Source: Candidatus Hydrothermarchaeales archaeon
Lineage (GTDB): Archaea; Hydrothermarchaeota; Hydrothermarchaeia; Hydrothermarchaeales; JAZGAD01
Length of the DNA stretch: 64,000 bases
Reading direction: 5' to 3'
Assembly: GCA_036444275.1 (NCBI GenBank)
Contig: JAZGAD010000048.1
Span: forward strand, 92 to 64,091
The first letter of the stretch is position 1. Each line of letters starts with the position of its first letter. A program made the translations under genes and the position numbers. The notes beneath the pieces were generated by a model. The model searched no databases, was not told the origin of the DNA, and saw nothing but the letters and a program-made list of their open reading frames with translations. Shown here piece by piece: positions 6,001-50,857 of this stretch.

Positions 6001-8664
6001 GTAGTGCTCGGCAACCGTCGGGGCGTTGCTTACATTGCTGTAGGGTGCAGTGCCGTTGTGACAGTCCCAGCAAAGATAGGGTGGATCCCGGTTCTTGTGC
6101 TGAGCCTCGCCGTTGGTGACGTGGCAGCCCCTGCATGCTCTTTCTATGGACTCGTTCCCAGAGGCCTCGCTGGCGTTGTTTATCCACCTGTGGATGGATT
6201 CGTTGAAGGCCGTGAAGTTCACATCCGGATAGGTCTGTGCATCGCCAGTCCTATGGCACTGAGTGCAGGTCTCACTCCCTCCTTTGAGGTCGAGCTCTTC
6301 CTCGTGGAAGGACTCACTTACCTCATCGTTGTGGTGGCAACCATTGCAGGTCGTCCTTCCCGTGTGGTCTTGCCTCGCAGCTGTACCATTATCGATGGAA
6401 GGACCTACGCCGTAGTCGTATCTAACCGTGGCAGTTCCCCTGTGGCAACCTTCACAATCAGCGGTGTCTGGAGCGGTGTTGGGGAGGCTGGTGTTCTTGC
6501 CGTAGTGAGAGACGTTGGCCAAGAGGTAGTTGGTGAGGGTGTTGAACTCCGTTCCCCCTGTATCCCCCAGGTCGTTCCTGTGGCACCACTCGCAGGTGGC
6601 GTTTCTCTCCGTCTGCGAGTTCCAAGAGGTATTGGTCATGAGGTAATCTGAATCGGTTTCTCGGGCGTCGAGGCTGGAGTCTATGCCCTTGGGGAAGTGC
6701 TCCTTAACCGTTGGAGCAGAAGGATATGTGCCCCAGTTCGGACCCGCATATACTCCTGTCACATTCAAATGGCAGTCGGGGCAAGTCCACGGGGTCTTCT
6801 GCTTATCCGGGTGCCCGCCTTCGACGGGCTCGCCGTCGGTGTCGTGGCATCCCCAGCATATCTTGTTGGCATCATTAGTGGTGCCGGTGGTTGCATTCTG
6901 GTTCAGCAACCTATGATTGGCCCCAGAGGCGTTTACAGAAGAAAAGTTGATACCCGTGTTGGAGGAGGAGCCACCCGATGCGTCATGGCAGTCGGAGCAG
7001 TGCTCGGTGGCCGTAGAGTGCGTGCCATCATTTAGAGTAGCATCCACTTGCATGCTATAGCTGTGAACGGTGAATTTGCTCTGCCCGTCATCGGTATGGC
7101 ATTCTTCGCATGCCAAGGTATCAATAATATAAGTTGTGTTGTCGTGGCACGTCTTGCAGGTGGAGTTCACGGTGCCGCTGGATCCGGTCATATTGAAGGG
7201 GGTCATGTTCGCCTTGCCAGTGACCACCCGATCAGTTGCATGGAAATTCGTATTTATAGTCTTGGTGCCGTTGCTCGAATAGCTCTTTATGGTCTCGTTG
7301 TTGTGGCAGTCGGTACAGCTCAGGGTGGAGTGACTCTCATCTATGTCATAGATTGCGCTGCCGCCATCCTCATGGCAGTTGGTATCGGAAATGCCGCATG
7401 AAGTGGGCTTCGAAGGAGTAGAATGGGCGGTGCTCATATGGCAGTCCTCGCACGTCTTGCTAGAGCTCCCGTGGTATGTGTTAGAAGAGTCCCATCCCGG
7501 TATATCTCCTGTGCCGTTTATTTGAGCCACTCCCCACGTTGAGGTTGAATTGTGGCACTTGTTGCACGCTGGGATGGTAATGTTGTGTGCTTTTTGTCCA
7601 CTGGGTACGTGGCAGTCGCCGCAGTTCGGACTGTTGCCGGCGGATACGTTGTGGTCCACCGCCGCTATGGATTTCGACGAGCTAGAACCATGGCAATAAT
7701 CATCTTCATCAGAACCAGCTCCCTGACTCCCGCAGGTTGTGCTCCATGTGGTTTTGTAAGTAACATTGTGACCGTGACCGTGGCAGTCCTCGCAGTCCTT
7801 GCCAGCATGCAGGCCTGTGGTGTTGCGTGGGGTTATGGTGTGGCATTCATAACATTGCCTCACGACAGGAGAAGTGGCTCCCAAAGCGGTCCCTGCCTGA
7901 TGGCAGTCGTTGCACTGTGCACCAGCAGTTGTTCCATGCTGATTATTTGTGCTGGTGACCGCGGGCATGGCGTCGTGGCAATTGGTGGTGCAACCTATAG
8001 TATCTGTCCTCGGAGTGGAGGTCATTTGGGCAGAATCATCCAAGTCATAGGTTTGTACACCATGGCATCCCCAAGTGGCCGTGAGTGAGTACGCACAGCC
8101 AGGAATTGTCTCGGGATTAAAGTCTATACGGCTTGGATTCCCAAAGGTGTTGTCACCGTCCTCTTGGTCCCCCGCCAGTATCTCTGCCTCGTAGTCGAAT
8201 CCGTACTCCTTCCAGAACCAAAGCCGCCGGGGGCCGATGGGGTTGCTTCCGGAACCAATGGTAATATCAGCGCTTCCTGAATTAAGAACGGCTACCAAAG
8301 GGCTGGTAATATTTCGCCATCCCGGAAATCCTCTCTGATTGGGGTCGTCCCAAGCTGCCATTCTCCACTGGGGCCAGGAGGTGTCCCCGTGCATCCCGTG
8401 GACCCACTCAGGGAAAGAAGCCGCCGGGGCCCTGTCAGCCCCCGGGTGCAGCACATTGCCAAACTGCAAATTGTTAGGGGTGGTGGTGCCGGCTTTATTC
8501 TCCGTGACCAGGTGGCACTTTGATCCCTGGCAGCTGGCGGAGGTGATATTTACCTCCGCGTTAGGTGCGGAAATATCATATCTGCTGAGGGCAAAGGCGC
8601 CCGGGATTAGTAGAACGCTCACTATTAAAACGGTCAGTATCCCGATAGCGCAACGTCCTATCAT
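1..8664 (-). CDS. Giant extracellular multiheme cytochrome c (>2888 aa, 3' end beyond window)
   Basis: Hand translation from ATG at 8664 is open to position 1 with no stop. N-terminal signal peptide MIGRCAIGILTVLIVSVLLIPGAFA. 37 CxxCH motifs, 7 longer-spacer CxnCH motifs and many N-x-S/T sequons. Absent from the ORF track, probably because no stop codon lies in the window. Confidence 0.95.
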   Translation of the reverse strand, partial: MIGRCAIGILTVLIVSVLLIPGAFALSRYDISAPNAEVNITSASCQGSKCHLVTENKAGTTTPNNLQFGNVLHPGADRAPAASFPEWVHGMHGDTSWPQWRMAAWDDPNQRGFPGWRNITSPLVAVLNSGSADITIGSGSNPIGPRRLWFWKEYGFDYEAEILAGDQEDGDNTFGNPSRIDFNPETIPGCAYSLTATWGCHGVQTYDLDDSAQMTSTPRTDTIGCTTNCHDAMPAVTSTNNQHGTTAGAQCNDCHQAGTALGATSPVVRQCYECHTITPRNTTGLHAGKDCEDCHGHGHNVTYKTTWSTTCGSQGAGSDEDDYCHGSSSSKSIAAVDHNVSAGNSPNCGDCHVPSGQKAHNITIPACNKCHNSTSTWGVAQINGTGDIPGWDSSNTYHGSSSKTCEDCHMSTAHSTPSKPTSCGISDTNCHEDGGSAIYDIDESHSTLSCTDCHNNETIKSYSSNGTKTINTNFHATDRVVTGKANMTPFNMTGSSGTVNSTCKTCHDNTTYIIDTLACEECHTDDGQSKFTVHSYSMQVDATLNDGTHSTATEHCSDCHDASGGSSSNTGINFSSVNASGANHRLLNQNATTGTTNDANKICWGCHDTDGEPVEGGHPDKQKTPWTCPDCHLNVTGVYAGPNWGTYPSAPTVKEHFPKGIDSSLDARETDSDYLMTNTSWNSQTERNATCEWCHRNDLGDTGGTEFNTLTNYLLANVSHYGKNTSLPNTAPDTADCEGCHRGTATVRYDYGVGPSIDNGTAARQDHTGRTTCNGCHHNDEVSESFHEEELDLKGGSETCTQCHRTGDAQTYPDVNFTAFNESIHRWINNASEASGNESIERACRGCHVTNGEAQHKNRDPPYLCWDCHNGTAPYSNVSNAPTVAEHYNDASDLNISKLTGDINSSCIACHNKTEMLNTFTEDDSGGSGNGSFSNVSHYGKKRGDDLRYVENSTNVTSCTYCHQNASTAFSDVMAVTNRKGMYNHTDRTGSPTCSNSTCHNQGRMHDADLTKPQFNYVLCTSCHTDRQNHSGSIGGVSCPECHTNTSKGGWDIHGINGSYLQSSGNAYGGNGSAVNCATCHQGTGADGKTTTQPKIPSPMNHSNNETDEGGIWSPGDPYWTTGNQLSACSFCHGDTKHDTNALGNASSAQGSDSVNNTGFSTSTWCGSCHYKNDGNYTSTQAALEPDPPEITNDSWNNIGVPRYYNHSFSDGNYNDSKCDDCHTIGSPVSMDEFMHNVQIGVAGGRNCTQCHDLSGSAPKHVNISAINSSNAIHNNLNSGSVDAGVDPRNRICWACHGTGDDPGSGHPAEYKNPWTCYDCHVEGGANYGNYAGAKNVSEHFNNATDVNVSKYTGDVNFSCVSCHYGKSEMILLASAVNDPDTGSFTIYSTYDGGNVSASHYGKKRHESGDGLYLDAASTNCAYCHQNSTTAFSDAMENTVNINLGNHTNNTGGPYCTNSTCHDAGRIHDAALTIPFKDTGGMYNSSLCKACHGGKEVHGVAEWNSNTLECASCHADPGVYSASGGGAAYFNITYDRVTKNSSGTYTGNESPATARVGDPPAGRGTSQVEAGYQTLPQRQELGRFDGLSLRDEVSSFLSSILKGASFFSDTLEVYTPKDRAREVPIDLITERNNFGANEQPEFDILLRKNSLRTLWTGRGKIRATLIGPSGKELKLEEEVRETEKGFRVKLDKGRAFRPGLYTLRVETTQDGVTTVKEQDFTWGVLAINTHKSIYLPTEEAFIGIAVLDDEGRMVCDAEVVLTITDPMGVETTLSTEDGSIVVSEECSYYGVTDLPDYYTNYKVKGIGSYRMDLTAITEDGERSIVDEFEVQSSIPFDVARDGPTRIYPLVPYTMSFMIKANEDYSGPIREYVPSSFEITPQEGLEVKTIGDTKVLSWGEQLKKGQTYILAYEFDAPDISPEFYVLGKLEIGSWKEAREWMIASDTTVQDDGAPTASPNPVNQNNNVNISSRLKGQGGGGAACDPSCDVWMEDDGLMINTTSEGVADFYCTGSSQVTIVQCDPTGCSVNADCSVNIPLLGQNAIVVINYTFVASGTPAAHSLQAGGTEGTFADPVSVTIQTSADNPPTWQNQGQNVSTINVSGAVNLSAEGNDDNGLWQAQLETNESGGTWNNQTCGASCYGSPMDLGNVTTWTWSNFTWSNSSVAPGTTVGWRIWYRDNATTSNWNATDIMTFDVVDQVPPVMISKFINESGTVSPGTYVCLNATVTDNWQIDDVWAVITYSNGTLANLTMLTSASCASGDTYGVEVNVSSVEGTFYFNASYANDTVGNIDSNTTLQSLTVSSVGDVNPPWFSQNQSNNTIANSSTLFSVYWQDDGTLDSYVFGTNNTGAWVNETYPFGGGDAKYSNITKTLNNTVGAMVEWQVWANDSTGKMNTTGLQYITTTAATWQSTLVADGYIIGQGGQLVVPASGYLNINDTNGATVNYSGTTYKYAVMIGVESVSGTIDGDENLTCIHSNDDATDNETIGWTLINTVGYKWINSTGGVTNYVEGDGEGGALEYIKCTASGVSGNEAITINLTVYFEYIPGPAAAAPPPTKDVYRYYVKFDISTIPAGADITEANLTLNITVAGPGGEIGIVNGSKDVQDGADNDTVHGGGTLSTGGTFDVSSLGEVNVTVTSIVQAAVTNGQSYAAFQVRALDESNSSQNFTIAGNGSNGRPKLFINYTASPQKQIHGIRYIEQDGTYSDAYDNSSVANCASCHQGTTITQVNGTAPPKIPLVFNHSNNESAGNLWGSYWNDSDGVKTNDSCWYCHGDTKHNATGLGNVSIIPGTVNGSINDTSIWCRSCHYNESPYYKGDVFSPRPPEITNDTGEFYNVNPGYYENHSGSSYLGNDSTCKSCHQPSPAPSNMTAFMHNVQIGVAGGRDCV

Positions 8665-43601: not shown

Positions 43602-43893
43602 CTTTTTCCTCCTGCAATGCGAGAATAGAGATAACGCCAAGGGCAGCTGTATAGAGCACAGTGGCCTCGCCTAGAGTGTCGTAAGCTCGATAGTCAGCGA
43701 TTATGCTGGCAACGATGTTCAGCGCCCCTGTCTCCTCCACGTTTTTCGTTACGTATCTCGGTACAACATGGGTGTATGCTGGTGCGTTGGGATCACCGAA
43801 TCTAGGCATCTCAGCGACTAGGGAGACGAGGATGTAGCCTATTAACAACACGAAGACTAGAGCTACAAGCCTCCTCCCACCTATCCTCTTCAT
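43582..43893 (-). CDS. MrpA C-terminal/MbhE-like split subunit
   Basis: NIVASIIADYRAYDTLGEATVL. Confidence 0.88.
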   Translation of the reverse strand: MKRIGGRRLVALVFVLLIGYILVSLVAEMPRFGDPNAPAYTHVVPRYVTKNVEETGALNIVASIIADYRAYDTLGEATVLYTAALGVISILALQEEKDGRSHH

Positions 43894-44135
43894 TCCTCCT
43901 CCCACCTCGTGGTCTTACTTATCGTTGCTACAAAGAGCATCGTCGTGATACCAGCTCCAACCGCTGCCTCGGTTATGGCTACATCGGGTGCATTCAGTTG
44001 CTGCCATATAATCGACATGACCATGCTATATGCAGAGAAAATCACCGTCGCTGCGAGCAGGTCCTTTGTGCGTATGACCTCTATGGCGCATACTACGAGG
44101 AAGAATAGAAATATCAGGTCTAGAATCCATATCAT
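43890..44135 (-). CDS. DUF4040/MbhD-like split Mrp subunit
   Basis: APDVAITEAAVGAG. Confidence 0.88.
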   Translation of the reverse strand: MIWILDLIFLFFLVVCAIEVIRTKDLLAATVIFSAYSMVMSIIWQQLNAPDVAITEAAVGAGITTMLFVATISKTTRWEEE

Positions 44136-44458
44136 CTCTTCACCCCCTTGTACTCGTCGACCACGCTTCCCTCCCATAGCTCCACGCCGCTTACATAGGC
44201 GGCTTTAGCTATAGCGTGCGCCGTAGTGGGGTTTACCCATACAATGAAGACTATAATCAGAAGGATCTTGAAGCTAGTAAAAGATAAACCGGAATAAATA
44301 GCAAGGCCTAGGAATATGGAGATAGCACCGAGGGTATCGCATTTTGTCGTTGCGTGCATCCTCGTGTATACGTCTGGAAACCTTAAGAGGCCTATGGTGC
44401 CGATTACGAAGAAGAATACCCCCATCAGTAATAATGCTAGAACGACGATGTCGATCAT
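44132..44458 (-). CDS. mrpG: Mrp antiporter subunit G
   Basis: GLLRFPDVYTRMHATTKCDTLG, PTTAHAIAKAAY. Confidence 0.93.
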   Translation of the reverse strand: MIDIVVLALLLMGVFFFVIGTIGLLRFPDVYTRMHATTKCDTLGAISIFLGLAIYSGLSFTSFKILLIIVFIVWVNPTTAHAIAKAAYVSGVELWEGSVVDEYKGVKR

Positions 44459-44727
44459 CCTGTCACCTTCCCTGTTTCCAAATATTTCGATATGGTTATA
44501 GCTGATAGGAAGTTGATCAAGGCATAGACGATGGCAACGTCTATGTAGAGGGGATGACCGTATATGAATGCGAATAGCACTAGGATAACCAGGGTCTTGG
44601 TGCCGATGACGTTTATCGCGATAAGCCTATCCGGCAAAGATGGGCCTTTTACACCCCTATAGAGACAGAGGAAGCTCGTGAAGCCGAGTATTATGCCTAT
44701 TGCCACGAAGACCGTAGCAGGAATCAT
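44455..44727 (-). CDS. mrpF: Mrp antiporter subunit F
   Basis: GPSLPDRLIA, YIDVAIVYALINF. Start MIPATVF. Confidence 0.93.
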   Translation of the reverse strand: MIPATVFVAIGIILGFTSFLCLYRGVKGPSLPDRLIAINVIGTKTLVILVLFAFIYGHPLYIDVAIVYALINFLSAITISKYLETGKVTG

Positions 44728-45239
44728 TCCATCGCCTCCAGCTTTTCCAGTCTGTCCTTCATATGCCACTTCTTCACGCCTTCAGCGGCTTCTGTCGTCA
44801 GTGCATGCACATAGTAGGTGTTATTTATGAGGTCTACAGTTAGAGTACCTGGAGTGAGGGTGATGGAGTTCGCAAGCGTAACCTTGGTGATGTCCTTGCG
44901 GAGTTTCGTCTCGAATTTCACTATACCCGGAGATATCGGCATCTTTGGGTCTAGCACGATGCGTGCAACCTGGATGTTGGCCTTTATTATCTCAAATATA
45001 AAGTGGGCTACATAGCTAAAAAGAAATAATGCAAGAACTTTCGGTCTTGGAAGCTTCTCTCCCCTCTGCACGAGAAGGTCACGGGAAAACGTAGCTATAA
45101 GCAGGGCAGAGAGGATGCCAACGAAGACGTGTTGCAGGTCAATGGTGGATGAGACGAACATCCAGAATAAAAACAGGATAGCAGATGCGATCAGGATATC
45201 GCTATTATCTCTTATACCTTTACTTCTTAATCTTACCAC
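44724..45239 (-). CDS. mrpE: Mrp antiporter subunit E
   Basis: IIKANIQVA, LANSITLTPGTLTVD. Confidence 0.93.
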   Translation of the reverse strand: MVRLRSKGIRDNSDILIASAILFLFWMFVSSTIDLQHVFVGILSALLIATFSRDLLVQRGEKLPRPKVLALFLFSYVAHFIFEIIKANIQVARIVLDPKMPISPGIVKFETKLRKDITKVTLANSITLTPGTLTVDLINNTYYVHALTTEAAEGVKKWHMKDRLEKLEAME

Positions 45240-45260
45240 AATACGGCCTCACATTATTGC

Positions 45261-46085
45261 TTAGTAGTCGACTCCGATTTTAGGCCTGGATTTTGGCTTG
45301 GGTTTCGACTCATCTCTAGGGAGACTCGCCAGCTCTGCCATCTTCAGTTTATACGTGCGTGAAAGGCTCACAGCAAACGGCAGCAGTACTGTAGCCAGCA
45401 CTACATGGAAGATATCTTGGAGTGCATGGGTCATGATGTACGCGGCAGCAAGCCTCTCGATGTCTACATACCTGCCAATCATGATGTCGATTGTTAGCAG
45501 GGAAACCAGGATGGAGACCAACGGTACGTGCACCGACAGGAAAGGATCGACTATCTCGCGGGTTTTACGAAGCAGAATTGCAACAAGGATTACTGTTGGA
45601 ATTGAAGTGAGATACAAAAAGGGGCCCTCGACCCGTACATCCCAAGGTGACTCAGCCATACTTGCCATAATTATTATGAGGGTACTCGTAGCAGCGAGAG
45701 CTATCATACCTATCTCCGTCGATATCGCATCACTATCATCGCCTATTTGTTCGCTGCTGAATTCTTTAACCCCGAGATAGAGGAATATCAATGCAAGAGG
45801 AGCAGCGATCATATGCATGTAGTGGAAGAAGTCATGGATGAAGGGCTCAGCAGAGAAATGCTCGCCTGCCTCGCCCAAGCCTATGAGGCCAATGTAGAAT
45901 ATCGCCCACAACATCGCCTGCCATGAAAATTTTGTGTCCTTCAGCATGGTGTATATGATCACAATGGCTGCAATACTCGCTAAAAACAGGAAGGTCGCAG
46001 CATAGATATGGACATAGAGTTCCATCATGCCGTGGTGCCCAATCGTCTGACCTATCAACATTCCAGCTTCATCAAAATAAACCAT
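45261..46085 (-). CDS. His-rich multi-pass (about 7 TM) membrane protein leading the Mrp operon
   Basis: 274 aa with intramembrane His in YVHIY, HDFFHYMHMIA and THALQDIFHVV. Confidence 0.75.
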   Translation of the reverse strand: MVYFDEAGMLIGQTIGHHGMMELYVHIYAATFLFLASIAAIVIIYTMLKDTKFSWQAMLWAIFYIGLIGLGEAGEHFSAEPFIHDFFHYMHMIAAPLALIFLYLGVKEFSSEQIGDDSDAISTEIGMIALAATSTLIIIMASMAESPWDVRVEGPFLYLTSIPTVILVAILLRKTREIVDPFLSVHVPLVSILVSLLTIDIMIGRYVDIERLAAAYIMTHALQDIFHVVLATVLLPFAVSLSRTYKLKMAELASLPRDESKPKPKSRPKIGVDY

Positions 46086-46223
46086 TCTCTTACCTCTCTA
46101 TCCCAAGCATTTTTTACATATTTATATTTTTTGAATTATGTCGCAAAGCCGAAATTATAGATTACTGAATTATTGAAACCCAATCAAAGTAAGGTTTAAA
46201 TCTCGTATTGCCTTAATAAGCGT

Positions 46224-48266
46224 ATGGTCTTCAGCATCTCGTGCGATAACGGCACGCTGAAGATGTTCGATAAGGTGGAGAGGAAGGTCGTCCGGTTTGG
46301 GGTGGAAGGCTGGGAGTTTACTGATAAGAGCTATTGGTTCCGCTTCCCGGTGGATGAGACATTTTCAGGTAGGTGTAAGAAGGTAGAATATGATACCCAT
46401 CTCACTTACATCCGAAGGAAGGAAGACTACGAGCTCCTAGTGCACGTGAGGAATGGTGTCAAGCGTTCGCTACCGAAGGATAAGTACATCATCGAGATTG
46501 ATGCCCATTTCAAGATCTACCTCTATGTATACTCTACCATACGCGTGGAGTGTGACAAGGAGGCTAATGTATCCCTCTCCTTCGATCCTAAGGCCCAGTT
46601 AATTTTCGGGGTTAGGTCCTACCGCCGCCGCCCAGAAGCAACGATCAGGACTACTAAGGATATCGAGGGCATCGCTAGGGCTATATCTCTGCTGTCATCC
46701 TCCATCAAAGTGGCTAGCCCAGAGAGAAGTTATCCCACACTACGGGGCCACCCACCTCTTATTGAGTTTTCTGGCGAGCCTTCTACAGATATTGAGAAAT
46801 TGGAGAGCGGGGTGGAGATCTTCTTGCCCATGAAGCTTGCCTATCTCTACGTGGCTTCGCCACTAGCATATTACCTGCTAGCAGACATAAGGTTCGGGGA
46901 GCCCAGGATCACCTGTAACAATGGCTTCCAGTACCCACTATCCAAGTTACCGAGGTTCGAGGACGAGGTCAACCAGACCCTTCAGAAGGTGTTCTTCTTA
47001 GACTGCCTGGTGAGGAATGCCGGACTGTACAAGCCAGATCTATACGAACTTAAAGCCTTGAAAGGACTAGATTTGGATATAAAGGAACTTTATTCCATGA
47101 GCATCCAGGAGCAACTACCCATATACATGGGCATCCCAATAGACAAGCTCAAGCCCTTTATGCCTACTTGGCACCTCGCCTCTTACGTTAACCCAGATAT
47201 GGATAACGCTAAGGCCTTGCCATTCTTGCTTAACAACCTATCCACTATCTATTTGGCTCGCTCTAGGAAGATTTCTCCAAGGGATGTGTCTAAGCTAAGC
47301 TTTAACGAACTCTTCAGAGGCAATGTGATAAGGGAGATAGAGGAGAAGACTATAGCAAAACCGGTGCTGAAGGAAGCCCAGAGCCATCTATGGCTGGCTC
47401 CAGAGAAGCCTATAGACGTGGCCAAGATGAATCCCGATGCCGTTTATAATCAACTTAACTTTGAACATGACAAAGGGAGGATAAGAGTTGCCTTAGTGCT
47501 GAACGACGAGGAGATGCTGCGGGAAAAAGACACGGTACAGAACATTTATGCTCAGCGAAAGGACATCCCTCTGGATGTTGAGATATTTGACTTCTTGCAA
47601 AAAGATGAATTGGCAGGTATCTTTGAGGAGGGATACGACCTAGTACACTACATCGGGCACTGTGATGAAAGGGGGCTCCAATGCGCAGATGGCTTTCTCA
47701 AAATCAAGGAAATCCAAAAGAACAATACACCTGCCTTCTTCCTCAATGCTTGCAAAAGCTACGAGGAGGGAATGGACCTGGTTAGTAGTGGCTCTGTCGG
47801 CGGAGTTGTAACCCTCTACTACGTGCCCAATGAACAGGCTTTAAAAATTGGATACACCTTCTCCATATTGCTGACCCTTGGCTTCCCTATAGAAAAGGCG
47901 ATCAGTTTATCAAAAATGGGGAGCTTGAGCGGTAGAGATTATCTGGTATTGGGAGATGGGAATTATTGCCTCATGCAAAATCCCCGACTAAATACCGTAT
48001 TTTTATTCGAAATAAGCAGTACAAAACAGGGCAGATTCCGATTACTTGAAAAGAACTGTGGATACCAAATAGGCGGATATTTTTACTCTGATCTCGATAA
48101 GAAGTGCTACCTTTTTTATAACGAGGCTAAATCGGAACTCAGCCGCTCAGAACTCTTAAAGCTACTAGAAAAGACGAAGACCAGTGTTCCCGTTATATAC
48201 GAGGACAAACTCTTTTTCTCTGAAGAAATTTCTGATATATTTAAAAATAAAAAGAAGGGAGGATGA
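46224..48266 (+). CDS. 680-aa protein with C-terminal CHAT/caspase-like peptidase domain
   Basis: DLVHYIGHC and FFLNACKSY (His-Cys dyad), GSVGGVVTLY, YLVLGDG, and SPERSYPTLRGHPP in the N-terminal half. Confidence 0.8.
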   Translation: MVFSISCDNGTLKMFDKVERKVVRFGVEGWEFTDKSYWFRFPVDETFSGRCKKVEYDTHLTYIRRKEDYELLVHVRNGVKRSLPKDKYIIEIDAHFKIYLYVYSTIRVECDKEANVSLSFDPKAQLIFGVRSYRRRPEATIRTTKDIEGIARAISLLSSSIKVASPERSYPTLRGHPPLIEFSGEPSTDIEKLESGVEIFLPMKLAYLYVASPLAYYLLADIRFGEPRITCNNGFQYPLSKLPRFEDEVNQTLQKVFFLDCLVRNAGLYKPDLYELKALKGLDLDIKELYSMSIQEQLPIYMGIPIDKLKPFMPTWHLASYVNPDMDNAKALPFLLNNLSTIYLARSRKISPRDVSKLSFNELFRGNVIREIEEKTIAKPVLKEAQSHLWLAPEKPIDVAKMNPDAVYNQLNFEHDKGRIRVALVLNDEEMLREKDTVQNIYAQRKDIPLDVEIFDFLQKDELAGIFEEGYDLVHYIGHCDERGLQCADGFLKIKEIQKNNTPAFFLNACKSYEEGMDLVSSGSVGGVVTLYYVPNEQALKIGYTFSILLTLGFPIEKAISLSKMGSLSGRDYLVLGDGNYCLMQNPRLNTVFLFEISSTKQGRFRLLEKNCGYQIGGYFYSDLDKKCYLFYNEAKSELSRSELLKLLEKTKTSVPVIYEDKLFFSEEISDIFKNKKKGG

Positions 48267-48271
48267 CTCCC
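48257..48271. terminator. Short hairpin between convergent CHAT and peptide genes
   Basis: gggag-gatga-ctccc inverted repeat overlapping the CHAT stop codon. Confidence 0.3.
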
Positions 48272-48275
48272 CCCT

Positions 48276-48395
48276 CTAAGGCCCATAGCTACCGCCGCCA
48301 GCAGCTACGATGCCGCTGAGTACCGTCAGAGTTGTAACTATTACAACTGGCAACATCGGCCTTGACAGGACAAAATCCGAAATTTTTTGCCTCAT
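48276..48395 (-). CDS. 39-aa secreted peptide precursor (not in ORF track)
   Basis: MRQKISDFVLSRPMLPVVIVTTLTVLSGIVAAGGGSYGP, with a perfect SD AAGGAGGTGA just upstream of the ATG. The hydrophobic core ends in VAA before a 7-aa polar tail. Confidence 0.8.
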   Translation of the reverse strand: MRQKISDFVLSRPMLPVVIVTTLTVLSGIVAAGGGSYGP

Positions 48396-48915
48396 GCTTC
48401 TCACCTCCTTTGCGTTTGAGGTGAGGTAGGGAAGCCCTACTATTTTAAATTCGGGAAATCCGTAAAAAATTATAACCCTCTATAAAATCAAAATATTACT
48501 TAAAAACTAGCTAAACCTTGAATGAGCGTATATTAGAATGTATATTTAAATAATAATGAGATATTATGCCCCCAAAGAATATTACGTCCCTAACTTGCCC
48601 TCTGTTGATAACTTCTGAGCATATCGTCGATGGTATTTGCTACCTCTTTGAAGTCGAGTTCCTTGCTTAAATGCTCGTCGGCTTTTGCATACTCAAAACT
48701 CCTCTTCTTATCCTCTGGATCAGACCTCACGGGAAAAATTCTTGAAAGATTAAAATAAGGGCACCCCTCCCCCATCGGAAGGGTTCCCCCCTATCCGGAG
48801 GGTCCATAACCCCCTTATCCTCATCCTTTATTATATTTTGGTAATCCGGAAAAAACTCAAAATAGCTTAAAAATTGATAAAAAGCTTTATATGCGATTAA
48901 AACATAATTTGAGAT

Positions 48916-49296
48916 ATGGGTATCGAAGAAACTGTGCGATCAATAAAAGGGCGCTTCAAAGAGGATACTATAGTGGATTTTGTGCAATTGACTAAACTAT
49001 TTGGAGAGCCTAGGTACCAGTTGCTCATAAAGAAGGCCCTGGATCTAGAGTCACGGATCTTGATTTCAGCAGCAAAGAATAGAGAGCTCTACCAGGACGT
49101 GATGAACTGGGCCGATAAAAAGGGGAAAGTAAAGAAATCAACCTTATCTGACCGAAAGCACTACCTCGTTGAACTCGGCCTTATCTCTGAAGAAGCTGAA
49201 AAGAAAGATGGAGGGAGGGGACGCCCCAGGAAGCGCCTCTGCATGACCGAGGGGAATAGACAGCGGTTTGAAGAGTTATTCGGCGAACCTCTTTGA
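48916..49296 (+). CDS. Winged-helix transcriptional regulator (TbsP C-terminal-domain-like)
   Basis: AAKNRELYQDVMNWA...KSTLSDRKHYLVELGLI...GRGRPRKRL, with TTTATA upstream. Confidence 0.75.
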   Translation: MGIEETVRSIKGRFKEDTIVDFVQLTKLFGEPRYQLLIKKALDLESRILISAAKNRELYQDVMNWADKKGKVKKSTLSDRKHYLVELGLISEEAEKKDGGRGRPRKRLCMTEGNRQRFEELFGEPL

Positions 49297-49319
49297 ATGC
49301 TGGATTATAGTAACGAAGA

Positions 49320-49394
49320 TGCCCCGGTCGGGATTCGAACCCGAGTCACAGCCTCGAAAGGGCCGCATGATTGGCCGAGCTACACTACCGGGGC
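49320..49394 (-). tRNA. tRNA-Glu (TTC)
   Basis: GCCCCGG acceptor stem, anticodon loop CT-TTC-GA, T-loop GGTTCGAATCC. Confidence 0.95.
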
Positions 49395-49538
49395 TTCAAC
49401 TATTATAATTGAAGGCGTTTTATTTATTTTTGGGCTTCCCTGGAGTTATCTGAGCTGACAAAAAAAAGGCAAATGCCTTCCTATCGTCTATAATCCTATC
49501 TATCTACCATCTAAAGTCTATCGTATGTTAGTAGAATG

Positions 49539-49611
49539 TGCAGCCGCCGGGATTTGAACCCGAGTTGGGAGCTTGGAAGGCTCCAGTCCTAGCCAGCTAG
49601 ACCACGGCTGC
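49539..49611 (-). tRNA. tRNA-Gly (TCC)
   Basis: GCAGCCG acceptor stem, GGAGC-CT-TCC-AA-GCTCC anticodon arm, GGTTCAAATCC. Confidence 0.95.
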
Positions 49612-49630
49612 GCTCTACACAGATAGATTA

Positions 49631-50857
49631 TTAGCTAGACCTCTGTTTGACTAATTCTTCAGCCAACATAGGTAAAAAGGCACCCACATCAGTCACTATA
49701 CCTAAGGCTTGAGCTGTGCCTCTATCCGTCAGCTTTGTAACCGTGGCAGGATTTATATCCACGCATATGGTCTTCACATGGGAGGGTAGAATGTTTCCCA
49801 CAGCTATGGAATGGAGCATAGTGGAGAACATGAGTGTAAGTTCCACGTCCTTCAAATTCCTCCGCATTTCCCTCTGGGCTTCAACAACATCGGTTATCAC
49901 CTCAGGCAAAGGTCCATCATCGCGAATGGAGCCAGCTAGGACGAAAGGAATCCCCTTCTGAATACACTCGTACATAACGCCACCTTTCAATTTTCCATCT
50001 TGGATAAGGTTCTTTATTGAGCCTGCCCGCATAATCTCGTTTATAGCATACAGATGATTCCTGTGTCCCCTTTCAGTGGGTCTACCTGTCTCTATATTGA
50101 GCCCAAGCGATGTGCCATAGAGCTGACTCTCCACATCATGCACTGCTAGGGCGTTGCCAGCGAAGAGGACATCCACAAAGCCCTTCCGTACCATGGTTGC
50201 TAGCGCCTCTGAAGCACCGGTATGCACTACTGCGGGCCCAGAGACCACAAGGACCTTCTTCCCCCTATTTTTAACCCCATAGACTTCCTTGGCAATCTGG
50301 CTAACAAGGGACTGCGTAGGCTTCTCAGAGGAAACAGAACTGCGCATGAACTCGAAGACTGTGTAGCCGCGGGGCCTAGCCGGCGGCTCTATCCTGATTC
50401 CCTTGCTACCAACTACAACGAGATCCCCCTTTTTAATGTCACTTATGGGCTTGCACCTGGCCTCTCCTTTCTCCCTGTTGACCGCTATTACCTTATCCAT
50501 CTCCATGTTACGAACCTGAGCCCAGTTCCCATCTAAGTAAACGTAAGTTGGATGATTCGTAGTTGAATAGAAATTCTGAGGCAGCGCCCTATCCTTTGGA
50601 GCCCCCAGTAACTCCAATGCCTCTACTTCAGGTATAGTAGCTCCAAGCTTATGAAGATCCCCCAAAATCTCGTCCAAATGCTCTCTATTCTTCCCTTTAA
50701 CCAATATCCGAGTATATGAGTGCTCGTCTTTCTTCTTCCCTATTTCAAACTGAAGCACCTCAAACTCGCCACCTAGGTCCATGATAGTATCGAAGACCTT
50801 GGGCAGGACAAAGGAGTCTATGATATGCCCCCTCAACTCTACCTCTTTGACTTCCAT
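49631..50857 (-). CDS. TIGR00300/LOR-SDH-like ornithine cyclodeaminase
   Basis: GHIIDS, FYSTTNHPT, VSSEKP, AGNALAVHD, AGSIRDDGPLP, TKLTDRG. Confidence 0.85.
   Translation of the reverse strand: MEVKEVELRGHIIDSFVLPKVFDTIMDLGGEFEVLQFEIGKKKDEHSYTRILVKGKNREHLDEILGDLHKLGATIPEVEALELLGAPKDRALPQNFYSTTNHPTYVYLDGNWAQVRNMEMDKVIAVNREKGEARCKPISDIKKGDLVVVGSKGIRIEPPARPRGYTVFEFMRSSVSSEKPTQSLVSQIAKEVYGVKNRGKKVLVVSGPAVVHTGASEALATMVRKGFVDVLFAGNALAVHDVESQLYGTSLGLNIETGRPTERGHRNHLYAINEIMRAGSIKNLIQDGKLKGGVMYECIQKGIPFVLAGSIRDDGPLPEVITDVVEAQREMRRNLKDVELTLMFSTMLHSIAVGNILPSHVKTICVDINPATVTKLTDRGTAQALGIVTDVGAFLPMLAEELVKQRSS

Follow-up and report, generated by a model that had tools for sequence, protein, structure and literature searches.

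A conserved archaeal gene pair encoding a caspase-fold protein and a short Gly-Pro-ending peptide: a candidate peptide-gated protease switch

Introduction

In the RRNPP systems, a gene for a pre-peptide of about 40 amino acids adjoins the receptor gene, and the active part of the product is formed by its C-terminal 5–9 residues. The receptor is cytoplasmic, several paralogous pairs are found per genome, and there is a link to a DNA-binding regulator. Here we describe a locus of comparable layout in a 64,000-nucleotide stretch (hereafter, the window) of contig JAZGAD010000048.1, assembly GCA_036444275.1, from Candidatus Hydrothermarchaeales archaeon, in which the gene for a 39-residue pre-peptide converges on the gene for a 680-residue caspase-fold protein and lies divergent from a small winged-helix regulator gene. 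The likeness to Rap-Phr, PlcR-PapR, NprR-NprX and AimR-AimP concerns the pre-peptide gene of about 40 codons that adjoins the putative receptor gene, the C-terminal end as the predicted active part, the multiple pairs per genome and the link to a regulator. The archaeal locus differs in its receptor, which has a caspase fold with beta-sandwich sensor domains and no tetratricopeptide repeats (TPR), in the convergent arrangement of the two genes with abutting 3' ends, and in the many peptides that have no export signal. Since the receptor is not of the TPR type, we consider the module an analogue of the RRNPP systems and not a member of them.

Two protease systems are also relevant. In Craspase, a sensor domain switches a caspase-fold protease that acts on a protein of transcription control. 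In DegS, the C-terminal tail of unassembled porins (YxF-COOH) binds a non-catalytic PDZ domain, which is thought to activate a protease that controls a transcription factor. To our knowledge, no gene-encoded example of peptide-based signalling, between cells or inside the cell, has been described in Archaea. Passages of two reports present the signals and pathways of archaeal quorum sensing as largely unknown, and the Haloferax quorum signal as an unidentified small molecule insensitive to proteinase K (PMC12240190, PMC13464002). A passage of an earlier paper, in a haloarchaeal context, stated that archaea lacked homologues of caspase genes (PMC3615174). Our literature search found no paper on the module, on 'CHAT domain' together with haloarchaea or on the peptide family DUF7503/PF24335, and none for HVO_2860, HVO_2862, HVO_2861A or HVO_2860A.

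Results

A Gly-Pro-ending small gene is conserved beside the large gene

The genes of the module and the codons of interest are located in the window as follows:

46224..48266, plus strand: large-protein gene, a 680-residue open reading frame (ORF) whose product has a caspase fold (CHAT/separase/gingipain-like)
47658..47660, plus strand: codon of the putative catalytic residue His479, within YIGHC; invariant, and within the stretch aligned to clan CD protease folds
47751..47753, plus strand: codon of the putative catalytic residue Cys510, within FFLNAC; invariant
48276..48395, minus strand: gene of the 39-residue pre-peptide, stop codon included; probably a distant DUF7503-type member, with homologous small ORFs at most loci
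48279..48308, minus strand: codons of peptide residues 30–39 (VAAGGGSYGP), the stretch predicted to touch the large protein
48916..49296, plus strand: winged-helix regulator gene, 126 residues; PF23336 match, equivalent to the C-terminal helix-turn-helix (HTH) domain of TbsP

The peptide gene is convergent with the large gene, with a stop-to-stop distance of 9 nt, and encodes MRQKISDFVLSRPMLPVVIVTTLTVLSGIVAAGGGSYGP. The N-terminus of this product is basic, Pro13 is present, and a hydrophobic stretch that closes with VAA is followed by the tail GGGSYGP. A locus search with the single large-protein sequence returned no relatives, and the loci analysed here come from alignment-based searches. Set A comprised the best 80 of 293 relatives' loci, 79 of which were evaluable, with the stop of the large gene inside the fetched sequence; set B, representing a second paralogue class with 530 relatives, comprised 79 loci (73 evaluable); and a third set, which overlaps set B in part, included 13 loci of named Haloferax species or strains. 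We scored minus-strand ORFs of at least 20 amino acids that end in GP-stop and lie from -40 to +900 nt of the large-gene stop. A convergent ORF of this type was present in 72 of the 79 loci of set A, in 70 of the 73 loci of set B (where one match, L163 at +851 nt, is probably spurious) and in 68 of the 69 loci of the third set. Control positions in set A gave 5/79 on the opposite strand of the same interval and 0/79 and 1/79 in equal upstream intervals, and those in set B gave 0, 3 and 3 of 73. The initial annotation had reported the ORF at 48276-48395 (minus strand), with its strong Shine-Dalgarno (SD) sequence and its convergence on the 680-residue gene, and had proposed a scan of related neighbourhoods for small ORFs; the ORF is confirmed and the scan was positive in both sets, with 0–5 matches in the controls.

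Analysis of codon usage in 142 loci revealed that the terminal Gly is encoded by GGC (43), GGT (42), GGA (33) or GGG (24), the terminal Pro by CCG (53), CCC (50), CCT (26) or CCA (13), and that the gene ends in TAA (73), TAG (35) or TGA (34). The sequence KRVSTYGGP is maintained across Natrialbaceae through synonymous changes. The free variation of wobble bases and stop codons indicates that the peptide ORF is translated, and the retention of residues through synonymous changes indicates selection at the protein level. Strong SD sequences precede the peptide gene in the four non-halophile loci that were read. These sequence criteria identify the small ORF as a genuine gene that is translated.

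The large protein has a caspase fold with an invariant His/Cys dyad

The large protein showed no Pfam or NCBIfam match above threshold (best Peptidase_C25, E 0.077), and a sequence search of solved structures reached chance level only (E 0.12). Among the candidates scored, 435 homologues were found at E <= 0.001, with identities of 50–60% in metagenome-assembled genomes (MAGs), including several of Hydrothermarchaeota; identity falls to about 45% for Methanocellales MAGs and to about 35% for many named haloarchaea. Full-length look-alikes in the ESM Atlas were found in Archaea only. The blocks RSYPTLRGHPP, DCLVRNAG, YIGHC and FFLNAC are conserved in an alignment of 25 sequences. His479 (YIGH) and Cys510 (LNAC) follow the clan CD peptidase pattern of a His and then a Cys after consecutive strands and are invariant in 25/25 aligned homologues and in 75/75 sequences of a larger set, while Cys480, the neighbour of His479, is kept in only 70/75. 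The dyad had been pointed out in the initial annotation, and the position of the two residues suggests that they are catalytic.

The AlphaFold2 model (pLDDT 87.4, pTM 0.89; predicted local distance difference and predicted template modelling scores) consists of a beta-sandwich (residues 1–135), a middle domain (about 136–410) that contains the RSYPTLRGHPP and DCLVRNAG motifs, a caspase-like domain (about 415–585) and a C-terminal beta domain (about 590–680). Foldseek placed gingipain R (RgpB) at 4.2e-7 and also retrieved SAVED-CHAT, separase, the Craspase TPR-CHAT protein, caspase-6 and MALT1. In VIA-align comparisons the highest score was obtained with SAVED-CHAT 8tl0_A (Z 15.8, root-mean-square deviation 2.9, 168 aligned residues, model 415–584), followed by separase 5fc2_B (Z 14.9, 245 aligned residues), RgpB 4ief_B (Z 14.4, 242 aligned residues) and the anti-sigma factor DdvA (Z 14.4); for residues about 320–585, the top entries were 8tl0_A, 8rot_B (Z 14.4) and 7zoq_A (Z 12.2). 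The separase and gingipain matches take in the preceding pseudo-protease subdomain, at a sequence identity of about 10%, and weaker matches were obtained with the peptide ligase OaAEP1 (Z 9.4) and GPI transamidase (Z 8.6). By its predicted structure, the large protein is a clan CD caspase-fold protein of the CHAT/separase type. The name 'CHAT protease' given to it at first is thus upheld as regards the caspase/CHAT-like fold and not as regards the Pfam family: the window protein has no match to Pfam CHAT (PF12770) at E <= 1, and 5 of 25 family members match it (best E 0.0044), none at the gathering threshold.

Ligand-activated CHAT proteases, namely SAVED-CHAT, Craspase TPR-CHAT/Csx29 with Csx30, and DdvA, are therefore the best fold matches for residues about 320–585. 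The archaeal protein differs from them in that its ligand would be a gene-encoded peptide tail and not a cyclic nucleotide or a target RNA, in that no clear structural match was obtained for its sensor domains (best Z 8.2), and in that it has no CRISPR or CBASS context, no PADLOC match and a Pfam CHAT score below threshold. The N-terminal half modelled alone (residues 1–410, pLDDT 88.1) gave Cwp6 as its best VIA-align match (Z 8.2), galactose-mutarotase-like sandwiches at Z <= 7.6, and N-domains of glycosidases as its best Foldseek match (5.8e-4). These scores are middling, and homology to the Cwp6, mutarotase or glycosidase folds was not drawn. TPR repeats were not found by Pfam, and the domains seen in the model are a beta-sandwich, a middle domain of mixed type and the caspase domain. 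A hydrophobic segment for export or membrane insertion was not found in the large protein (maximum KD19 1.27), and 2 of 75 homologues reach a KD19 of 1.6, which may be artefacts of ORF starts; the large protein thus looks cytoplasmic from its sequence. Its composition (D+E 0.138, K+R 0.137) shows none of the acid shift of the halophile homologues, which fits a non-halophile host.

The peptide tail is predicted to dock in a conserved pocket away from the dyad

The complex was predicted from two separate unpaired alignments with the peptide as partner, in three runs and three controls. The runs gave interface scores (ipSAE, derived from the predicted aligned errors) of 0.84, 0.84 and 0.82, against 0.00 in all three controls; in calibration, the ipSAE mark was reached by 58 of 80 solved complexes and by 2 of 110 mismatched pairs. 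The runs share at least 58% of their contacts, and confident peptide contacts are limited to residues 30–39 (VAAGGGSYGP). On the large protein they involve residues 40-41, 58-60, 91, 93, 97, 114, 133, 167, 170-173, 268-269, 271, 589-591, 593, 609, 615, 617-623 and 631. The predicted pocket is formed by the beta-sandwich, the YPTL part of RSYPTLRGHPP and the C-terminal beta domain, and peptide residues 35–38 make strand-like contacts with protein residues 617–622. Confident contacts were absent from residues 475–515, around His479 and Cys510. The model thus predicts that the tail docks in a conserved, non-catalytic pocket at a distance from the dyad.

This predicted arrangement resembles DegS in the free C-terminal tail and in strand addition on a non-catalytic domain; it differs in the protease type (Ser in DegS, Cys here), the fold and the compartment, and neither Pfam nor the structure search detected a PDZ domain in the archaeal protein. 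Separase-securin and gingipain-prodomain pairs share the strong fold match and are proteases held by a bound polypeptide, but in our case the peptide is predicted at a distal pocket and not across the active site.

The pocket residues that contact Tyr37-Gly38-Pro39 are invariants of the family (K97, P171 and L173 in 75/75, Tyr or Phe at 170 in 75/75, G617 in 74/75), and those that contact the variable part of the tail themselves vary. Across 142 peptide-protein pairs, tail distances, taken over the seven residues before Gly-Pro, correlate with those of the pocket columns at r 0.759, compared with 0.725 for the rest of the protein. After removal of the whole-protein distance, the partial r between tail and pocket is 0.335, a value reached by none of 500 entropy-matched random column sets (maximum 0.299) and by none of 97 sets made by shifting the contact pattern (maximum 0.289). 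Tails with Tyr pair with D93, R133 and T271, and tails without Tyr with H/S93, H133 and W271, a pattern that is only suggestive because it largely separates two clades. The initial annotation had proposed modelling the complex with the peptide, which gave the confident predicted placement of residues 30–39, and a check of co-variation, which was positive for the pocket columns. It had named the N-terminal domain for this check; the beta-sandwich is indeed part of the pocket, which also takes in the YPTL motif and the C-terminal beta domain.

The DUF7503-like peptides have a conserved leader motif and variable tails

In an alignment of 15 peptides from all clades, only P13, G38 and P39 are invariant. 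A profile that includes the window peptide retrieves 287 small proteins at E <= 0.01; among the matches listed, most carry PF24335 (DUF7503) and many are named 'DUF7503 family protein'. The window peptide alone matches no Pfam family at E <= 1, and 8 of 21 aligned peptides match PF24335. On this sequence evidence, the window peptide is probably a distant member of DUF7503, a family without assigned function, with which the module peptides share the leader motif and the Gly-Pro end.

The N-region of the leader is conserved as x-Y/W-L-x-x-H/N-P-K/R. A hydrophobic core followed by 12–17 residues is found in 85 of 142 peptides; like the window peptide, these combine it with a basic N-terminus, a conserved Pro and small residues ahead of the 7–9-residue tail, an arrangement that resembles a cleavable export signal and agrees with the RRNPP design. 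The other 57 have no hydrophobic core, those of Natrialbaceae and Haloarchaeobius being hydrophilic and Arg-rich with the tail kept. We dropped the -3/-1 small-residue rule for signal peptidase, which fits 85/85 of the hydrophobic peptides, because the tails are rich in Ala and Gly and the rule is uninformative. In the second-class loci of Haloferax (L219, L223, L227, L229, L230, L232-L234, L237-L239, L243 and L247) the leader is nearly constant and the tails vary by species: GNTGVIYGP, GNTGIIYGP, GNTSVIYGP, GNSTYIYGP, GNSSYIYGP, GNTYVITGP, GTAGYIYGP, GGSAGVIYGP and GGSASVIYGP. Tails also differ between the paralogues of one genome.

Paired cysteines were observed in some tails of Haladaptatus (L151, L153, L157) and Halococcus (L236, L249), such as …LACCGDTTNGP and …VACCGVTDVSGASACTYSGP, and hint at a disulfide or another modification in these lineages.

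The regulator and its link to TbsP

The window regulator (48916-49296, plus strand) matches PF23336 (HTH_TbsP_C) with E 9.2e-14 and 52 bits (cut-off 27.1), in agreement with the small winged-HTH regulator, divergent from the peptide gene, recognised at the outset. It is equivalent to the C-terminal HTH domain of TbsP and differs from TbsP in that the TbsP_N domain (PF19138) is absent from its 126 residues and in its score against the NCBIfam TbsP model NF047393 (36.1 bits, below the equivalog cut-off of 300). The HTH domain also occurs alone in two other Hydrothermarchaeota loci, L008 (131 residues) and L011 (134 residues), and the neighbours in halophiles are of the full two-domain TbsP type, following the large gene in the class A haloarchaeal loci. 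Of 81 loci, 70 have a gene of the TbsP type no more than 4 kb away, downstream and on the same strand in 69, at 212–845 nt from the large-gene stop; with this placement on the strand of the large gene, the peptide gene and the regulator are divergent. The initial annotation had named the three gene types as co-occurring in haloarchaea, and this was borne out. Large gene, peptide gene and regulator gene make up a conserved module in these TbsP-type loci; in Methanocellales and in the second paralogue class the regulator does not adjoin the pair.

Instead of TbsP, a FilR1-like regulator is present in 31 of 79 second-class loci; as all of these are of the Halorubrum type, it is not independent support for a regulator link. 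We consider that the core of the module is the protein-peptide pair and that the TbsP link is old but limited to some lineages. A passage of PMC11023807 describes TbsP (HVO_2861 of Haloferax volcanii) as a regulator with effects on gapII, adhesion, motility and cell shape; the text of that paper contains no mention of 'CHAT', 'synten', HVO_2860 or HVO_2862.

We also observed a weak FilR1_middle match (E 8.5e-4) in the TbsP_N domain of the full-length neighbour in L013 (6517-7359, plus strand), and a true FilR1_middle domain in the second-class regulator of Halorubrum; TbsP_N and the FilR1-type regulators may share a sensor fold.

Distribution and phylogeny

Of the 301 genomes sampled from the haloarchaeal class that holds L013, 277 contain the large-protein family, mostly with 2–3 matches each, and the window's genome carries one copy of the large gene. 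Its presence in Hydrothermarchaeota and Methanocellales MAGs extends the range beyond halophiles, as had been supposed. In a FastTree phylogeny with midpoint root, the sister group of the TbsP-linked haloarchaeal class is a clade of Hydrothermarchaeota and Methanocellales, the second class branches outside both, and the tree of the large protein follows taxonomy. Some paralogues are located on plasmids (L159, L163, L211 and L240).

Three further proteins of 568–711 residues (L089, L090 and L091, from genomes G087, G013 and G015) match only residues about 3–346 of the family profile; they share the sensor half and have a different C-terminal half, and no GP-ending small ORF was seen adjoining them.

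Other features of the locus

Upstream of the peptide gene, the following features were located:

48408-48401, minus strand: SD sequence GGAGGTGA of the peptide gene, 5 nt before the ATG
48400..48425, minus strand: hairpin in the presumed 5' leader, with arms CUCACCUC and GAGGUGAG, pairing most of the SD sequence
48441..48449, minus strand: TATA-box-like element TTTAAAATA, 46–54 nt upstream of the peptide ATG, read directly from the sequence

The TATA-box-like element is a candidate promoter element of the peptide gene. The hairpin has a folding energy of -13.6 kcal/mol (z -2.28), and 4 of 200 shuffled sequences fold as well. By pairing the SD sequence it may exert translational control of the peptide gene. 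A comparable CCUCCG/CGGAGG hairpin, in which the SD sequence is paired with an upstream anti-SD-like stretch, was seen before the peptide gene of L008 (about 6175-6200, minus strand); in L011 and L007 the SD sequences are strong and the hairpin was not seen. The 3' ends of the large and peptide genes lie within -20 to +30 nt of each other in 56/72 and 67/69 loci (48264-48278 in the window), so that convergent transcripts would overlap at their 3' ends where the stop codons abut or overlap, and antisense or interference control is conceivable.

A tRNA-Glu and a tRNA-Gly come after the regulator gene, and an Rfam scan of 46000-49700 found nothing beyond them. A 61-residue ORF between the peptide gene and the regulator (48590-48775, minus strand) has no family match and no counterpart in 80 loci and is probably a non-gene or lineage-specific; an upstream polytopic membrane protein of 274 residues likewise has neither. 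Since both have no counterparts in the 80 loci, we place them outside the module. Small membrane proteins encoded at 43890-46085 (minus strand) resemble subunits of Mrp/Mnh-type antiporters, as judged by eye from their translations.

Discussion

We propose, at about even confidence, that the module works as a protease switch which the peptide gates and which is linked to a regulator of the TbsP type. The cytoplasmic 680-residue protein would carry the caspase-fold domain with His479 and Cys510 between sensor domains, and the convergent gene would supply a pre-peptide of about 40 residues whose invariant elements are one Pro of the leader and the C-terminal Gly-Pro. The last ten or so residues (VAAGGGSYGP) would bind by strand addition in the three-element pocket, where the invariant residues K97, P171, L173 and G617 would read the invariant Gly-Pro-COOH and the variable pocket residues the variable residues that precede it. 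With a variable pocket facing a variable tail, each paralogue or species would have its own ligand key. As the pocket is not the active site, its occupancy is proposed to gate the protease, switching it on or off. The output would reach transcription via the adjacent TbsP-type regulator, whose promoter region is common to the peptide gene. As for the route of the peptide, the window leader looks like a Sec signal (VAA|G), and the ligand may therefore be GGGSYGP as a free heptapeptide. Whether the peptide is exported is uncertain, as no hydrophobic segment was found in 57 of 142 peptides and the receptor appears to be cytoplasmic.

Several observations count against the proposed switch. The GP-ending small ORF is absent at 7/79 loci of set A (L001, L002, L004, L006, L019, L020 and L080) and at 3/73 of set B (L156, L162 and L165); L006 reads ...SAYGGPRLKL, and L019 has ...TIYSGP without an in-frame start codon. 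L001, L002 and L004 are extra Hydrothermarchaeota paralogues with neither small ORF nor regulator, and their genomes also contain a peptide-linked copy. In the Methanocellales loci the regulator does not adjoin the pair, and TbsP was found in 0/79 loci of the second paralogue class, which makes the TbsP link a lineage-limited synteny. The docking is a prediction from unpaired alignments, in which the first 29 peptide residues have low confidence (partner pLDDT 40–48). The controls on co-variation do not fully remove shared ancestry, and the loci used come predominantly from Natrialbaceae and Halorubrum, the 142 pairs containing 103 unique tails. Finally, a leader that truly served for export, in N-in topology, would place the tail outside the cell, with the receptor inside.

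Among the alternatives, a quorum system in the strict sense of Rap-Phr/RRNPP is the one that deserves most attention, and we regard it as possible but doubtful. The peptide would be exported by Sec and cut after VAA, build up outside as a free heptapeptide and be re-imported by a permease to report cell density to the receptor-protease. The hydrophobic core followed by 12–17 residues in 85/142 peptides is in line with this, as are the small residues that precede a tail of 7–9 residues (VAA|G, VSA|G, VSA|Y, GLA|D, AAA|N), the restriction of the docked part to just the C-terminal ten or so residues, and the pherotype-like differences of tails across the species of one genus (Haloferax) and between paralogues. 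On the other hand, the remaining 57 peptides, among them the Arg-rich ones of Natrialbaceae and Haloarchaeobius that retain the tail, have no hydrophobic core, and the conserved N-region of the leader is unusual for a plain Sec signal. Secretion, assumed in the initial annotation, is not supported as a general property, the receptor too being devoid of a signal or membrane segment. The Rap-Phr parallel drawn there keeps its receptor-ligand logic, in view of the predicted docking (ipSAE 0.84 versus 0.00) and the co-variation, and loses the TPR receptor. The only described quorum signal of Haloferax volcanii is moreover reported, in a passage of PMC12240190, to be insensitive to proteinase K; identity of our peptides with the Haloferax 'disk-forming signal' was set aside, as that signal is reported as proteinase K-insensitive in the same source.

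It is distinctly unlikely, in our opinion, that the small protein is a permanent subunit, either a membrane anchor or an inhibitor similar to securin or a prodomain, which holds the protease by its tail without ligand dynamics. Strict gene pairing with abutting 3' ends and the high predicted interface score would be expected of such a subunit, its hydrophobic helix could act as an anchor, and, going by the titles of their structure entries, separase and gingipain, which are relatives by fold, are under the control of a bound inhibitor, securin or a prodomain. The basic N-terminus, however, leads to an expected topology with the tail outside, away from the cytoplasmic partner; in the model, the docked tail stops short of the active-site residues; and the strong diversification of tails with matching changes of the pocket is not needed structurally.

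Several clan CD proteases cut after Arg, and Natrialbaceae peptides retain K/E-R seven residues from the end. This would suit a third reading, in which the peptide is a substrate or precursor, tag-like or akin to ribosomally synthesized and post-translationally modified peptides (RiPPs), the pocket is an exosite and Cys510 removes the leader or transfers the peptide. The conserved leader, hypervariable core and invariant end do resemble RiPP precursors, and OaAEP1, a peptide ligase, and GPI transamidase (glycosylphosphatidylinositol transamidase) are among the fold relatives. The reading is nevertheless very improbable: the predicted complex has no confident contact near 479 or 510, nothing follows Gly-Pro that could serve as a leaving group, and no other maturation enzyme is conserved nearby, the neighbours being different among Methanocellales, Hydrothermarchaeota and halophiles.

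A reading of the small ORF as a chance frame, or of the module as an element of an anti-phage defence island, is hardly credible: the former is ruled out by the ORF counts against controls and by the codon variation, and the latter, despite CHAT proteases acting as effectors in type III CRISPR and CBASS-like systems (by structure entry titles) and some paralogues being plasmid-borne, is opposed by PADLOC, in which the three window proteins match 0 families at E <= 0.01, and by the 277/301 prevalence and taxonomy-following tree, which are unlike patchy defence genes.

The peptide-gated switch proposed here concerns a very widespread gene pair whose ligand, receptor pocket and candidate catalytic residues are all identifiable from the sequence, so that direct testing is possible in tractable haloarchaea. 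A bolder form of it, to which we give a low probability, is that DUF7503-type pre-peptides are exported and trimmed to 7–9-mers with Gly-Pro at the end, and that receptor-proteases in the cytoplasm read these tails, specific to species and paralogue, in matching pockets, cleave a target and reset transcription via TbsP-type regulators. This would be the first archaeal gene-encoded peptide pheromone system, near-universal in haloarchaea and present also in Hydrothermarchaeota and Methanocellales. If the proposed switch is correct, it would provide a function for Pfam DUF7503 and for a large archaeal family that has no model in Pfam, connect TbsP with signalling and reveal a caspase-fold protease family in haloarchaea.

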